From positions 104,923 to 168,922 of the forward strand of contig CAWHAA010000009.1 of NCBI GenBank assembly GCA_963827275.1: DNA of 64,000 nucleotides. Reading direction: 5' to 3'. Each line of letters starts with the position of its first letter. The first letter of the stretch is position 1. The position numbers are program-made. The DNA is from an uncultured Spirochaetota bacterium. Its GTDB lineage: Bacteria; Spirochaetota; UBA4802; UBA5550. This document shows, in pieces, positions 54,001-60,000 of the stretch.

Positions 54001-57000
54001 AGAGGTTGAAGAGAAAACAGCTTGAAGGATATACATACAGATGCCAGCATCCGATATATCGCTACATCCTTGATTTTTACTCTGATGAAAAGCTTCTGGC
54101 GATTGAATTGGATGGCGATATTCATAATGAAAGATAAGACTATGATGAGTATCGTGATGAATTTATGAAGAGTCTTGGGATAAAAAGATTGCGATTTGAC
54201 AATGATGAAGTCGTGAAAAACATCAATTCAGTTATAGATAAAATTATGTTAGAACTGATCCTGCAGCTCAATTGCCATCTAAAATTCCTCGATTTAAAGC
54301 GTTTTGATGAAGAACGGAACAAGCTGTTGTGGGTTTCGGCGTGGTATGAGGTCAAAAGGAATACTGTATCAATTTCTGGATTGAATGCCTTTTTTGAATG
54401 ATTTGAAAGTCGGGCAAATGTATGGACCAGTTGCCCGACATGTTGTCAATTTAATCTTTTTCGTTGCTTATTACCCGATCAGCCTTGCCTGTTTTCAACG
54501 GTATGATTTTACGATATTCGCTCTCCCTGGCCTTCATCGCGTCCCACAGCTGAACATCGGTCTGGAGTCCCATCCAGAATTCAACTGTTGTGTGGAAGAG
54601 CCGGGAAAGGCGTATCGCGGTGTCCGGAGTGATGGCGCGTTTCCCGGAGATGATCTCATTGACCCGGACCCTGGTTATGCCGAGACGCTCCGCCAGCTGC
54701 TGCTGGGTAAGTCCGAGCGGCTCTATGAATTCATATTTCAGGATTTCTCCCGGAGGTGTGGGTCTTCTATTCTTTGGTAACATAGTTGTGCTCCTTTGCT
54801 CAATGATATTGAACGAGCTCGACATTATAGGCATCGTGTTCCCTGAATTCAAAACAGAGGCGCCATGGTCCGTTTATCGATATGGCCCACTGTCCCTGCC
54901 GGTCGCCAGAAAGGGGATGAAGCCTGTTCGATGGTGGCGCACTAAGGTCAATCAGGTCGTATGCCCTGTTAAGCATGTCGAGCTTCCTTGAATAAGGCGA
55001 TCGGCAATTTCAGACGGCACCTTTTTGTTGCGGCCGTTGTTCCAGAATTCCTCCAGCCATTTATGCTTGAAATGCCGTATCATTATTACAATGTAATGAG
55101 TCATATGACATATGACAAGTATTTTATTTATCGGGGTTATATTAACGGGCATAAAAAGGAGGCTTTGATGTAATGCTATTTGAGCCGGTGGCTATAAACA
55201 GAACAGCCCGAACCTGACGGTTAGGGCTGTGTAAGCGGCTGCGGGCCAAAAACGACACGGGTCGAACTTTTTCCGCATCCCACGAGCTGCCGAAACAGGC
55301 TGGTGCAACGGGAATACAGCTCAATTGCCATCTAAAATTCCTCAATTTAAAGCGTTTTGATGAAGAACGGAACAGGCTGGTGTGGGTTGTCGGCGTATTA
55401 TGAGGTTAATAGGAATAATTTACCAGTTTCTAGATTGAATGCTTTTTTTGAATGATAAGAATACAGTCATAATAAAAATTTGCGAGTATACAAGAACTAT
55501 ATTTCAAACCAGCGACATGAGAGGAAATGGAAAATAGTTGCCATAATTGATGGTCGGGTATATTATATAAACAAAAATCGATTTACAAAATTATAAACAA
55601 AGTAAAAAATAAACCAGGAATATGCAAGAGGTGATAGCATCGTGAAAGCAATAAAAAAATCGGTAATAATGAAGAGCTCCGGCAGAATAACGCTGTCCGG
55701 TCTTCCTTTTAAAAAAGGAGAAAAATTAGAGGTGATTGTTTTCGCAGATGAAAAGAGGAGCGCTCTTGCCAAGGAAATGAAGTCACTGTTTAAGGAAACC
55801 CAAAAGCTTCCAGTAATAAAAAAAATATCTGAAGCGGACATTATTAAGGAAATACAGGATTACAGATCCGGAATATGAAGGTGGTCATAGATACAAATGT
55901 ATTGGTCTCCGCCATTATCAAGGATAAAACACCGGAAAAAGTTATACTCTTCATTGTTGAACATCCTGATATAGAATGGGTGGTAACTCGCAAGATAATC
56001 AAAGAGTACAAGAATGTACTTTCACGTCCTAAATTCAATCTCCCCGTACAATATTTTAAAGCATTGGTTTTCTCTCATTGATGGTGCCACGAAGCGCATT
56101 GAAACTTCAATAAAAATTAAGTTTCCACGCGATCAAAAAGATGCTTCGTTTCTGGAATGTTCGATCGATTCGGATGCTGATTATTTGATAACCGGCGATA
56201 AGGATTTTATCGGAGCACGGAGACTTTTAAATACGACAATATTATCGGTTTCTCAATTTGAAAAACTTGTATGCACTAGATTAAAATAGAAGTCACATAT
56301 TATAAATAACATAGCCGTCGGCAAATGCCTGCATATAAAACAACACAGCCCGAACCAAGTGGTTTGGGCTGTGTAAGCGGTTGCGGGCCAAAAACGACAC
56401 GGGTCGAACTTTTTCAGCGTCCCACGAGCTGCCAAAACAGGCTGGTGCAACGGGAATACAGCTCAATTGCCATCTAAAATTCCTCAATTTAAAGCGTTTT
56501 GATGAAGAACGGAACAGGCTGGTGTGGATTTCGGCGTGTTATGAGACCAATAGGAATAATGTATCAATTTCTGGATTGATTGCTTTTTTTGAATGAATTT
56601 CCAATATCATACAATATCAACGAGGGTTGCCCAACAATATTGGAGAAATTCAGATTTGTTGGGCAAATCCTGCTTGACTGGTTGCCCAACAATATGTATA
56701 TTATTGGATAATGTTGGGCAATAAAGGGTTATCGCCATGAGTACGATAAAAGAAGTTCTTAAAGAAGAACTTGCAAGGCTGAAGAGGCTTAATGGACGTT
56801 ATATCCATGATATAGCAAAACTGCCTTCAGGATCATTGTCAATAAAATCCAGGAAGGGCAATGAATATGCCTACAGGGCATACCGCAGCAATGAATAAAG
56901 TAAAAACCGATTATATAGGACCGGCCGATTCTGATGATGTTAAAAAGCTGAAAGAGAAGATCACAAAGCGAAAGAAATTGGAATCGTTACTGAAGACCAC

Positions 57001-60000
57001 CAATGAGCAGATCACCGAGATAGAGAGGTCTTTGCGTGGAAAAAAGATTTGAGCTGTTTCATAAAGTCATAATCAAACTTGGTGAAACCGGTGTTTTAAC
57101 GGATATTATTCTCATCGGCAGCTGGTGCCTTTATTTGTATCGCAATGTATTTAAAGATGCCGATACCATGCCGGCGGTTAGAACTGTAGATCTGGATTTC
57201 CTTGTGCCCAATCCTCCGAAGATCAAACATAAAGTTGATATTACAAGGATACTTGAGGAACTCGATTTCGTTGAAGAATTTTCCCATCTCAGCGGCAATT
57301 CAAAATTCGTTCATCCTGACCTTGAGGTGGAGTTTATTATTCCGGAGAAGGGCAGGGGCAAAGACGGTCCGCATATCATCAAGGAAATCAATGTGCGCGC
57401 TCAGGGCCTGCGATATGTGGATCTATTGCAAGAATACACCATAATAATTCCGTTTGAAAATTATCCGGTAAAAGTGCCGGAGCCATCTGCCTTTGTCTTG
57501 CATAAGATACAGGTGAGCGGCAGAAGAAGTAAGAAAGAGAAAAGGGTTAAGGACCTGGAAACAGCCACAGGTCTGGGTGAATATCTGTTAACTCGCGACG
57601 ATCAGATTGTAAAGATGCAGGATATTTATAGGAGTCTTCCGGTTAAATGGAGGAAGGAGATCCTGGAGATAGCGAAAGAACATTCAGAGAGTATTTATAA
57701 GATTCTGCATGAGAAATGACACTTGTTCATAACGCATAGGCTGAAAACAACACAGCCCGAACCAAATGGTTTGGGCTGTGTAAACGGCTGCGGGCCAAAA
57801 ACGACACGGGTCGAACTTTTTCACCTTCCCACGAGCTGCCCAAACAGGCTGGTGCAACGGGAATACAGCTCAATTGCCATCTAAAATTCCTCAATTTAAA
57901 GCGTTTTGATGAAGAACGGAATAGGCTGGTGTGGGTTTCGGCGTGTTATGATGTCGCTAAACAAGATATGAAAATATCCGGGTTGATAGCTTTCTTTGAA
58001 TGATTATAATTATTAGTATTCAAGAACGATTTTCGAACTTGTTAACAAACCTGCGATAGGTGAGATGAGATATGAACCGAAATGAACCATTTTGAACCAT
58101 CAAATTATATTGCCAACATAATACAAAATAGAATATACAAATAAAAACTAATGTGACATAATCCTTTTTTGATTTTTTCATCTTGCACGCAGTAGTGTTT
58201 CACAAATTATTTTTTATGTGACTTGTTCTTCATCTGTCATCGCTTCATATGTAAAAATAATCTGAATTATTTATTTCGCCACTTACTAATATTTAAATGA
58301 ATCCGCCACTTTTGACAGGTTCATAATTTAAATATTACGTGAGGAGAATTTATATGAAAAAGATTGTGAAGAAAGCTAAAAGTAAAAGACTTAACTGGAG
58401 TATGATTAAATCATACTATGTCATGGGTCTGCCCCTGGACTACATTTCAAGAAAGTATGGGATCTCCATCGAGACCTTGCGCACCAGAAGGAAACGTGGG
58501 AAGTGGGAGGAAGAAAAGAAGGCAGTTTGAAGCAGAGTCTTTTTAAAGGCAAAGGATGTCTATATGAATTGTCTTGTCGAACATCAAGTCAGATCACGAG
58601 AAAGATATGTTAAATACTATATCGAAGCATCCCATAAAACCATTGGAATGATGGATAACTGTGAGGATCCAAAGTCGCTGGTCATGTTGATGAATTCGCT
58701 AGAGCAATGTCAGTCTGGGGAGTTTAAGGCGTTAGCTATCACAGATAAGACAAATGAATATCTTTTCCGCCAGGTCGATCATCGTGAGATCAATGATGAA
58801 TCCCAGCAGCAGGTTCATATTATTGATAAGGCTATTGAAAATCTCAGAAATGACAAGGAGAACGTCATTAAGTTTTTCAAGGTATTGTATGAATATGGAC
58901 GACTTAAAGGGGTCGATATTCAAGCATTATTGGATGAAAAGGTTAAAGCAGAAGAGAATGGGTCAGAAGAGAAGAAGCCTGAGGAACGACACTGATCATT
59001 CGGCCCAAACAATTCTATTTGCCTCAAGAATCTGGTTCCCGTGTATACTGGCAGGGGAACCAGATTCTAATTATTTTTACACTGAAAAATTATTACGATG
59101 TGACACTATTTGTCATGGTACATTCTATACTATTTATTAAGATGGTTATTCAAGGAGAATTGATGGTATGATGAAAGCATATATAACTTTTTGCGAGCCC
59201 CAGGATGAATTCGAGCATCAGCTTGTAGTGCATGAGAATCTTCTACAAGAAGAAGAGATCTTTTTCGCCGGTCCCTCCCATTCATGCGATCTTTGCGGAG
59301 CTTCGTTCAATAATAAACGGCTTATGCTGGACGCATGCCTTGATAGTGAAAAGAATGCATGGGGTTGCATCTGCTCCAGATGCTTTATTAAATATGCCTG
59401 TAAGATGGGTCCGGGAAAAGGACAAATGTTTACTCATCTTCAAAGCGGCGAGTGGCTTTTAACGGCTGGATACAATCAATAATTTGTAGTTGCAATGTTT
59501 CATCGTTATCAGACATATTGTGTTTCCAATTGTATTTACAAAATTGATAGTGGTGGTGGTTCGGGGATATTGATGTACTTAAAACGTTCTAACCAAATCT
59601 TCCGAATCATTGGCGCTATGTTATTTTTAAATTCTTTATATGTGAATTCGTCACTTTTTGCGTTATTGCACCAGTAACAACATAGTACCATGTTCCCAGA
59701 CTCGTATCCTTTATTGGGTTCTTTCTGATCAATCTCTATTGAATGACCTCGATTGTAAAATCGTTTGGTATAAAAGCGTTGCGGATTATTGAAATCACCT
59801 TTTGTTGTTTCTATAATCTTATCAATATTATTTTTTGTTATACCACAATAATGACATTGAGGTGAACCATCGGCCTTTATACTTTGATCATAAAGCCTCT
59901 TAATATCTTCTTTAATATTTGAATTGTTAAAATCATTTTTGAAATATTCTTTGATTATAGTATTAAATGTTTCACCGAAATGTTTATTGAAGATCTCATC

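Follow-up and report, generated by a model that had tools for sequence, protein, structure and literature searches.

The window analysed here, a 64,000-nucleotide stretch of one contig from an uncultured Spirochaetota bacterium, holds unrelated small toxin-antitoxin (TA) cassettes separated by copies of one repeat of about 260 nt, which raises the question of what this repeat is and how the cassettes came to be stacked between its copies. An earlier note had read the repeat as a portable, non-coding promoter or common leader that co-regulates the stacked TA pairs, perhaps with the adjacent WYL-WCX regulator in control. Comparison with related genomes points to another answer: the repeat, which consists of a stub (X), a core and a tail (Y), is very probably the 3' end of a gene for a large serine recombinase (LSR), with attP inside it, and the cassettes are mini-elements that lack an integrase and have accreted one behind another.

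The four direct repeats that had been described, one of them partial, were re-found between positions 54263 and 58007, all on the + strand (Table 1), and a search of the whole 4.13-Mb assembly gave these four only, all in one array. Copy 3 is 88-96% identical to the other copies over 208 nt. The core (C/T)TGCGGG occurs at every junction and at the tRNA-Asp end described below, and the X stub contains, by eye, a hairpin with a near-perfect stem of 13-14 bp that lies within the coding frame. Homology to the module begins at 54263 in the alignment, where partial copy 1 is fused to a DUF559 gene; this fusion is the eroded left edge of the array, and the copy 1 tail belongs with the HigBA unit to its right. 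The tail of junction 2 is disrupted by a 1-nt insertion and internal stops. In environmental contigs, homology to the junction 3 region breaks at 56381 and 56596, and the joints in these contigs are accounted for by the repeats themselves.

Between the junctions, cassettes 1-3 contain TA-type genes only, namely paired small antitoxin and toxin genes of known families (HTH_3 with HigB-like, a 78-aa ORF with PIN_3, and a small gene with NTP_transf_8). Three of these genes (HigB-like, PIN_3 and the small gene before NTP_transf_8) are split by frameshifts in this assembly; the PIN_3 orthologue is unbroken in relatives G039 and G038 (136 aa), and so is the small gene in G039 and G036 (104 aa). The gene content reported earlier for four small cassettes is confirmed, but the fourth is not closed by a junction within the window: none was found before the contig ends at 64000, 6 kb past the array. 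The 104-aa ORF of this fourth unit is 94% identical to a G039 gene that lies right of the last junction there, and the unit probably opens a larger element, of which the integrase and tRNA-Asp are missing from the assembly.

Table 1. Features of the cassette array, in window coordinates. X, stub; core and tail (Y) follow it at each junction.
Feature	Position	Strand	Evidence or remark
DUF559 gene, two frames	53910-54137 and 54165 onward (part 53910-54262)	+	Pfam DUF559 7.8e-18 and 3.3e-4
Repeat copy 1, partial	54263-54405	+	Model positions 127-269
Integrase tail in copy 1, 3' part only, to its stop codon	54263-54401	+	nhmmer 6.3e-41; tblastn to relatives' tails
Cassette 1: HTH_3 and split HigB-like toxin	54451-55152	-	Pfam
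HigA-like HTH_3 antitoxin	54451-54852	-	Pfam HTH_3 5.4e-14
HigB-like toxin, two frames	54800-54976 and 54952-55152	-	Pfam HigB-like_toxin 3.1e-9 and 1.9e-3
Repeat copy 2	55191-55459	+	Direct repeat
X stub, junction 2 (last ~17 codons of integrase body)	55191-55238	+	Aligns with 3' end of G039 integrase gene
Hairpin in X stub, junction 2	55203-55232		T-run after hairpin on opposite strand
Junction 2: core CTGCGGG (55239-55245) and integrase tail	55239-55455	+
Promoter-like site, cassette 2	55538-55566
Cassette 2: 78-aa ORF and split PIN_3	55642-56289	+	Pfam
78-aa putative antitoxin	55642-55878	+
PIN_3 toxin, two frames	55875-56081 and 56014-56289	+	Pfam PIN_3 2.8e-11 and 5.7e-6
Repeat copy 3	56335-56600	+	Direct repeat; reference copy for identities
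X stub, junction 3	56335-56380	+	Hairpin 56343-56374
Junction 3: core TTGCGGG (56381-56387) and intact 71-codon integrase tail	56381-56596	+	Stop TGA
Promoter-like site, cassette 3	56674-56702		Between inverted repeats
Cassette 3: split small gene and NTP_transf_8	56737-57719	+	Pfam
Small gene before NTP_transf_8	56737-57052	+	Split, 53 + 63 aa
NTP_transf_8, 227 aa	57036-57719	+	Pfam NTP_transf_8 3.7e-22
Repeat copy 4	57740-58007	+	Direct repeat
X stub, junction 4	57740-57787	+	Hairpin 57750-57781
Junction 4: core CTGCGGG (57788-57794) and intact 71-codon tail	57788-58003	+
Fourth unit, open-ended	58339-61356	mixed ORFs	Pfam
63-aa HTH-like ORF, fourth unit			Given as 58 aa in the earlier note
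143-aa ORF, fourth unit
104-aa ORF, fourth unit	59168-59482
237-aa ORF, fourth unit		-
WYL-WCX regulator, fourth unit	60424-61356	-	Pfam

The module is present in 10 of the 64 family genomes, the source genome included (9 of 63 relatives); its carriers are 8 of the 16 other genomes of the genus, the count obtained before, and one genome from another genus. In relatives, the arrays follow the order Y-cassette-XY-cassette-X. In 6 of the 7 X-only copies, this final X adjoins the 3' end of a tRNA-Asp gene that is read from the opposite strand, and the two have the core TGCGGG in common; 6 of 11 metagenome loci show the same arrangement. One array, on contig C29 of G036, has a terminal X with no neighbouring tRNA. 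At three empty sites (G041, G044 and G032), a hairpin and T-run that belong to the tRNA come after it, and a similar species-specific hairpin is found ahead of the core in 6 of 10 left-most, Y-only copies. The earlier note described the module as unrelated in sequence to the tRNA-Asn-type junctions elsewhere in this genome; it does sit at a different gene, tRNA-Asp, but in being tRNA-anchored it resembles that family.

In three relatives (G039, G046 and G047) an LSR gene runs into tRNA-Asp, whereas the earlier note had listed no recombinase for the array of G039. The LSR of G039 is a 549-aa ORF with Resolvase, Recombinase and Zn_ribbon_recom domains (Pfam), related to the SPbeta integrase YokA (6.5e-14); its C-terminus reads ...FGPCRALRG before the stop codon, and the gene overlaps tRNA-Asp by 10 nt. 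The 3' end of this gene aligns without gaps to the X and core of the window junctions, in the same frame as Y. Orthologues lie at the same place in G046 (98% identity) and G047 (partial, 93% identity), and Y tails are present in all three LSR-bearing genomes. In G039, 62.8 kb separate the last junction from the LSR and tRNA-Asp, in the same orientation, and 39 of the 49 ORFs of this segment are without a match in G000. Directly upstream of its LSR, G039 has another large serine recombinase, of 501 aa. At E <= 1e-20, no orthologous LSR was found in 7 of the 10 module-bearing genomes, where it is absent or unassembled. Since the source assembly (92% complete) contains no tRNA-Asp and no LSR (0 PF00239 matches), the link to a recombinase in this genome rests on relatives.

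These results bear on a simpler history, in which one region was duplicated in tandem, its genes were then replaced, and the 260-nt repeats exchanged by homologous recombination without the help of a site-specific recombinase. Most arrays lack a recombinase. In addition, core-proximal halves of the tails group by genome (0.876 within versus 0.809 between genomes), and this homogenisation shows homologous exchange or gene conversion between copies. The distal half shows no such clustering (0.758 versus 0.773), and several of its nearest neighbours precede the same right-hand cassette; the tails are mosaic, a feature that speaks for the LSR-end model. On the other hand, the arrays have ends of the attL/attR type, with a first copy that lacks X and a last one that is X alone at the tRNA, and the displaced tRNA terminator is found at the far end of the array. 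Cassettes with fixed borders sit at different positions and in different order across genomes (the HigBA unit occurs elsewhere in the arrays of G042, G036 and G040, at 92-96% protein identity), and the junction is the end of a recombinase gene. Duplication is therefore a very improbable origin. The att-type ends and the changing cassette order instead bear out the part of the earlier reading in which the module was a recombination unit that stacks unrelated TA pairs.

The module is also not non-coding, as had been assumed. Y is a 71-codon open frame under purifying selection (90 pairs: median dN 0.169, dS 0.777, dN/dS 0.20); its variability by codon position is 0.116, 0.087 and 0.22, and its stop codon alternates between TGA, TAA and TAG at one position. 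This coding signature weighs against a promoter or leader, as do several other results. Promoter-like sites are not enriched (20 versus 14.9 +/- 3.9 in shuffles), the best sites for cassettes 2 and 3 lie past the module, in unique DNA with its own inverted repeats, and cassette 1 is on the opposite strand. A scan of 53000-60000 with the Rfam 15 covariance models, which the earlier note had left aside, returned no match to the module; two chance-level matches (E 0.2 and 2.5) fall essentially outside the copies, one of them covering the last 9 bases of copy 3. Control by the WYL-WCX regulator had been proposed from adjacency only, and the homologue in G039 (53% identity) lies 9.7 kb past the last junction, in the 62.8-kb accessory segment, so that this gene is tied to the large right-hand segment rather than to the cassettes. 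A leader function can still draw on the position of the module ahead of each of cassettes 2-4 on their coding strand, on a promoter-like site at 57983-58010 whose -35 element lies in the last bases of copy 4, and on an RNA-library contig, possibly DNA carry-over, in which the end of the tail of a copy-2-like module is continuous with the PIN cassette. Taken with the results above, there is very little to be expected from this reading, and a concrete mechanism replaces the speculative common leader.

Could the 71-codon frame be a free-standing small gene in each cassette, for example a directionality factor or regulator read from the TTG or CTG of the core, with the likeness to the integrase limited to X? 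The frame is intact in 14 of 26 copies, even in integrase-less cassettes with the dN/dS given above; gene callers annotate 71-aa proteins beginning at TTG; and all 26 homologues found are 51-103 aa long (the first search gave 21 of 55-103 aa). A profile search of 1.84 billion representatives added no longer protein (5 matches, all 51-88 aa), neither this nor the search for longer homologues yielded a protein joining body and tail, and the longest open frame across the 11 metagenome loci is 111 codons. However, the frame has no conserved ATG or GTG start; it opens with the codon of the core, which is CTG in roughly half of the copies and lacks a Shine-Dalgarno-like motif ahead of it. The frame runs on from the X stub and the integrase frame, its first ~15 codons lack a codon-position pattern and appear to be constrained as DNA, and the AlphaFold model of the 71 residues is poor (pLDDT 56, with a C-terminal beta-hairpin only). 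A separate gene is thus improbable.

Under the LSR-end model, integrative elements of this Leptospirales genus would insert at the last bases of tRNA-Asp(GTC), with TGCGGG as the core. The crossover would fall inside the recombinase gene, so that integration splits it: the body would stay tRNA-proximal and end in ...LRG within the tRNA, and the last 71 codons (Y) would come to lie at the other end of the element. X, the stretch of ~17 codons that precedes the core, would form a hairpin that replaces the tRNA's own terminator on the tRNA strand, and X may act as a terminator there. The cassettes retain a tail, TA genes and an X stub, without the recombinase, and the LSR would move them in trans. 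With tandem stacking (Y-cassette-XY-cassette-...-X-tRNA), every internal junction would thereby be a copy of attP. In the source genome, the array would continue to an unassembled LSR and tRNA-Asp end. The full-length enzyme would exist only on the excised circle; neither a circular form nor an excision junction was seen in the assembled contigs of public runs. Serine integrases usually pair attP with attB only, and the model therefore does not account for the entry of new units beside an occupied site.

A model in which the tails are pure scars also does not account for purifying selection on them in integrase-less cassettes. One tentative and rather unlikely possibility is that the 71 residues of the tail do work as an exchangeable C-terminal part of the integrase and are removed by integration, which would provide a switch between circle and integrated state. 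If so, bacteria would have, among the serine recombinases, a counterpart to the self-splitting integrases of archaea; TA cassettes would be kept partly because their intact tails re-complete a recombinase gene landing directly upstream, and the array would serve as a reserve of tails and thereby determine which of its neighbours is able to excise.

Chromosomal integrons and CALINs are one-directional arrays of small cassettes, often TA, with a conserved recombination repeat, and many have no integrase nearby. The array described here shares with them the single direction, small TA-rich cassettes bearing promoters and a hairpin-containing conserved repeat between them. An integron-like system, in which a tyrosine integrase would serve attC-type sites in trans, is nevertheless scarcely credible. 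Of the PF00589 matches in 5 genomes, just one lies on an array contig examined here, 113 kb off (G036 C29). The array lacks IntI, attI and an attC-type imperfect hairpin (judged by eye); its hairpin is a near-perfect palindrome in a coding frame, the repeat is 260 nt long and is a tRNA-anchored coding remnant, the anchor is a tRNA 3' end instead of attI, and the cassettes have their own predicted promoters.

A closer likeness is found in CIMEs, known from the accretion of ICESt1/ICESt3-type elements in streptococci, which are att-flanked, lack integrase and transfer genes, and stand in tandem with an autonomous element at the same site or replace it. Cassettes 1-3 of the window are similarly bounded by att on both sides and free of integrase genes, and no recombinase family match was obtained among 127 ORFs around 8 arrays of relatives. 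An autonomous element in tandem with cassettes is seen in G039 (the 62.8-kb segment ending in the LSR); in 7 of the 10 module-bearing genomes it is absent or unassembled. CIMEs depend on tyrosine integrases and protein-gene targets, whereas the junction here is a piece of a serine recombinase gene.

The organisation is not new in kind, as had been proposed, because tandem integrase-less islands at the att site of a serine recombinase have been published. According to part of the account by McMurdie et al. 2011 (PMC3146451), ssrA islands of Dehalococcoides form tandem arrays downstream of a gene for a small RNA. The serine recombinase gene dsiB (~540 aa) overlaps the att site with its 3' end, so that its stop codon is outside the island; the integration module is missing from many islands, for which cis-mobilization was proposed. 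The same passages suggest that the complete DsiB enzyme might require the circular form or another island following it. The present arrays share the tandem units, the recombinase gene end over att (seen in relatives) and the integrase-less units. They differ in target (tRNA-Asp, not tmRNA), host (a spirochaete) and unit size (TA cassettes of 1.1-1.7 kb against islands of ~12 kb), and no DsiA-like small second recombinase was identified here. In addition, the displaced tail here is 71 codons under purifying selection, while the DsiB overlap is described there as divergent and probably non-functional.

Two further systems resemble the split gene itself. In archaeal SSV-type 'suicidal' tyrosine integrases, att lies within the integrase gene, which is fragmented on integration at a tRNA gene; according to a review passage, archaea are the only organisms in which self-disrupting recombinases are known (PMC8371274). 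Apart from enzyme family and domain of life, the difference from the system covered by that passage is that only the last 71 codons are removed here, which leaves the catalytic, recombinase and zinc-ribbon domains joined. In the integration-dependent immunity of mycobacteriophage BPs, as outlined in part of PMC4557955, attP lies in the 3' part of a gene and integration alters the C-terminus of the product, which thereby senses whether the element is integrated. There, the split gene is the repressor gene and the integrase is of the tyrosine type, and a switch of this kind is a possibility only in the present system.

These findings have several implications. For annotation, 'hypothetical proteins' of 71-103 aa in Spirochaetota would be orphan recombinase gene ends. 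The serine integrase, its attB (at the 3' end of tRNA-Asp) and a large natural set of attP variants would supply what is needed to try out a new site-specific integration tool in a phylum with few genetic tools. Purifying selection on the long tail raises the question of whether self-splitting is a form of directionality control in bacterial serine integrases. The arrays also show a way in which TA genes can accumulate at a tRNA gene with no integron involved.

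By running a profile of three full copies of the ~260-nt repeat that separates the toxin-antitoxin (TA) cassettes (the module) over the arrays of related genomes, a two-part anatomy was obtained. The upstream part, X (module positions 1 to ~50), forms a GC-rich hairpin of 13-14 bp, and the second part, Y, extends from ~50 to 269. In the relatives' arrays, the order is Y-cassette-XY-cassette-...-X, the first copy missing X and the last consisting of X alone. The 3' end of a tRNA-Asp(GTC) gene, on the opposite strand, directly adjoins 6 of the 7 X-only ends, and the X end lies likewise at tRNA-Asp in 6 of 11 metagenome loci; the sequence common to junction and tRNA gene is TGCGGG only (the core). 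In three module-free genomes (G041, G044 and G032), A(G/T) comes after tRNA-Asp, and then a hairpin with a T-run. A species-specific hairpin of this tRNA-terminator kind stands immediately 5' of the core at 6 of the 10 left-most, Y-only copies, and those of G046 and G039 are similar to the terminator of G044. This anatomy is classical for tandem insertion of elements at a tRNA 3' end. It may be written B'-core-Y ... X-core-Y ... X-core-tRNA, where the terminator of tRNA-Asp would have been pushed to the far end of the array and X would substitute for it.

Two further sites were noted in relatives. In the array on contig C29 of G036 (L034:7724-7776), the terminal X stub leads into a degenerate core and then into ordinary genes (a DUF4258/MqsA-like pair), with no tRNA; this end reflects a secondary site or else a rearrangement. 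In G033, a genome without the module, the tRNA-Asp 3' end recurs as a 45-nt copy (C82:48008-48052) at 12.5 kb from the tRNA-Asp gene (60523-60599), which suggests that another type of element, one with a long repeat, uses the same target. Two minus-strand candidates were dropped: a small RNA ending at the hairpin (fold z-score -2.4 on the minus vs -1.4 on the plus strand), because the hairpin is a terminator-like stem after tRNA-Asp and the plus strand has a coding pattern, and a mini-ORF of 19-36 aa picked out by eye, since its residues and length differ among copies.

No tyrosine recombinase was found near the examined arrays, and the hypothesis of a tyrosine integrase was thus rejected; among 127 ORFs neighbouring arrays, none matched a recombinase family. 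A PF00239 search of five genomes returned large serine recombinases (LSRs) in four, the fifth being G000, the genome of the window. In G039, an ORF of 549 aa carries Resolvase, Recombinase and Zn_ribbon_recom domains and is a relative of the SPbeta integrase YokA (6.5e-14); its C-terminus reads ...FGPCRALRG*, and the gene overlaps tRNA-Asp by 10 nt. Orthologues sit at the corresponding position in G046 (98% identity) and G047 (93% identity, cut by the contig end). The final ~50 nt of the G039 gene align without gaps to X and the core of the window junctions, where the recombinase frame (...FGLCKRLRAKND...) continues into Y, which argues from sequence that X-core-Y would be the tRNA-Asp LSR gene's 3' end, with attP inside. 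We regard it as highly probable that the module has this origin and that the cassettes are integrase-less mini-elements at tRNA-Asp. Serine integrases follow an attP x attB rule. On integration, the LSR body would remain at the tRNA and its last 71 codons would be moved to the opposite end of the element. In G039, 62.8 kb lie between the last junction and the LSR/tRNA-Asp pair, in the same orientation, and 39 of the 49 ORFs of this segment have no match in G000; most simply, it is an autonomous element with TA cassettes stacked behind it. Two adjacent ORFs within it (G039:C3:466376-467493) share 100% protein identity with G000 C5:52491-53336 and 297756-298025, and probably represent an insertion sequence moving between species.

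Y proved to be coding, against the description of the module as non-coding in the earlier note. In the + frame ending at the module's last triplet, variability at the three codon positions is 0.116, 0.087 and 0.22 (22 copies), and that triplet is TGA, TAA or TAG depending on the copy. Medians over 90 pairs are 0.169 for dN, 0.777 for dS and 0.20 for dN/dS, and purifying selection acts also on tails sitting in integrase-less cassettes. The uninterrupted 71-codon frame is kept in 14 of 26 copies; it lacks a conserved ATG or GTG and opens with a CTG or TTG of the core. Homologues of Y comprise 21 proteins of 55-103 aa, from Spirochaetota where a source is named, and in the longer ones the frame just extends back through X. 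A search for longer homologues carrying body and tail in one protein gave none, a profile run against 1.84 billion representatives yielded five matches of 51-88 aa, none full-length, and the open frame reached at most 111 codons in the 11 metagenome loci. One 1.2-kb contig (L083) opens, 6 codons upstream of the core, in an FGPC motif of integrase type and is cut there by the contig end. The AlphaFold model of the tail, from 22 sequences, has a pLDDT of 56.

The two halves of the tail have distinct histories. Similarity in the core-proximal half is 0.876 within genomes vs 0.809 between them, so sequence close to the core is homogenised by exchange or gene conversion. The distal half shows 0.758 within vs 0.773 between, with no clustering by genome, and several of its nearest neighbours are tails from other genomes that stand before the same right-hand cassette; the tail therefore moves together with the cassette to its right. 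Five copies in G036 and G039 carry, at an identical tail position, an insert of 80-98 nt with two hairpins that interrupts the frame and resembles a miniature mobile insert.

Coordinates of module copies, copies with a tail insert and further serine recombinases
Feature	Location	Strand	Context
Module copy 1 (partial)	window 54263-54405	+	
Module copy 2	window 55191-55459	+	
Module copy 3	window 56335-56600	+	
Module copy 4	window 57740-58007	+	
Copy with insert in tail	L033:9840-10185		
Copy with insert in tail	L033:10981-11330		
Copy with insert in tail	L033:13029-13300		
Copy with insert in tail	L034:8663-9030		
Copy with insert in tail	L031:9385-9742		
Serine recombinase (L071)	G042 C49		adjoins tRNA-Trp
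Serine recombinase (L072)	G042 C46		adjoins tRNA-Asn
Serine recombinase (L073)	G036 C14		adjoins tRNA-His
Serine recombinase match, broken (L074)	G038 C1		adjoins tRNA-Trp

The four direct copies previously reported in the window, one of them partial, were recovered, and they are the only ones in the 4.13-Mb, 11-contig G000 assembly. As in the earlier note, the module was found in 8 of the genus's 16 other genomes; in the family, it is present in 10 of 64 genomes, with G000 counted and one from a second genus included. An Rfam scan of the array region found no family in the module. Cassette 1 encodes HTH_3 and a HigB-like toxin on the minus strand, cassette 2 a 78-aa ORF and PIN_3, and cassette 3 a small gene and NTP_transf_8. 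Three genes are each split over two frames in G000, namely HigB, PIN_3 and the small gene in front of NTP_transf_8, their versions in relatives being intact; the splits may be genuine frameshifts or assembly errors. Positions at which a base is missing from related contigs lie outside long homopolymers.

One and the same cassette, its borders unchanged, is found at array positions that differ from genome to genome. After the HigBA unit comes PIN in G000, the tRNA in G040, NTP_transf_8 in G036 and the large segment in G039; as for the NTP_transf_8 unit, it adjoins the tRNA in G036 and precedes Fic in G039. In environmental contigs, homology to the window stops at the core (56381) and at the tail stop (56596, 54401). 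None of the public runs reached half of the words, and the contig joints 55125>56337 and 57949>54367 are as expected from the repeats alone. Contigs from RNA libraries cover the PIN cassette only, possibly through DNA carry-over.

The module had been taken for a promoter or leader by which stacked TA pairs are co-regulated, and this reading found no support: promoter-like sites are not enriched (20 vs 14.9 +/- 3.9), and the best ones before cassettes 2 and 3 lie downstream of the module, in cassette-specific DNA. At window 56606-56725, in front of the small gene in the NTP_transf_8 cassette, an inverted-repeat half-site (TTGCCCAAC / GTTGGGCAA) occurs in four copies around a promoter-like site (56674-56702), a cluster that looks like a candidate autoregulation operator of this cassette.

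The G000 assembly lacks tRNA-Asp, the def-fmt neighbour and any serine recombinase, and contig C9 ends 6 kb past the last junction. The left array edge is eroded, a DUF559 pseudogene being fused to half a tail. Just left of the DUF559 gene lies a GC-rich dispersed 40-nt repeat (window 53853-53892) with 47 short-BLAST matches on 9 G000 contigs; all four public runs hold contigs that match just this repeat and then diverge. The fourth 'cassette' lacks a closing junction. Its 104-aa gene and the WYL-WCX gene are 94% and 53% identical, respectively, to G039 genes right of the last junction, and we read the unit as the putative start of a larger element cut by the assembly; the proposed link of the WYL-WCX regulator to the TA cassettes therefore reduces to adjacency. 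Consecutive ORFs of 233, 111 and 196 aa (window 61475-63223) match successive parts of one 779-aa IetA-like AAA ATPase gene, which in G042 (L071:7488-9827) adjoins the tRNA-Trp serine recombinase; the trio is probably a broken defence gene within the open-ended right-hand unit.

Tandem ssrA islands of Dehalococcoides are described in passages of McMurdie et al. 2011 (PMC3146451), according to which 15 islands without an integration module are proposed to be cis-mobilizable and dsiB may be whole only in the circular form or when another island follows. Self-splitting integrases are otherwise described among archaeal SSV-type tyrosine recombinases, and a review calls them exclusive to archaea (PMC8371274); an attP within a gene is known as a state switch from mycobacteriophage BPs (PMC4557955). 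The literature searched yielded no paper describing a long, conserved tail of a recombinase or mini-cassettes of this type that carry TA genes only, by which absence is not proven.

Four further serine recombinase matches fetched from the genus all adjoin tRNA genes, and the intact ones extend 15-70 nt into the tRNA. Because these recombinases, too, lie at tRNA genes (Trp twice, Asn and His), the tRNA-Asn-type arrays distinguished in the earlier note probably belong to a system of the same kind that has a different specificity. By their gene positions, these observations suggest that the genus may harbour a whole family of self-splitting, tRNA-targeting integrases.
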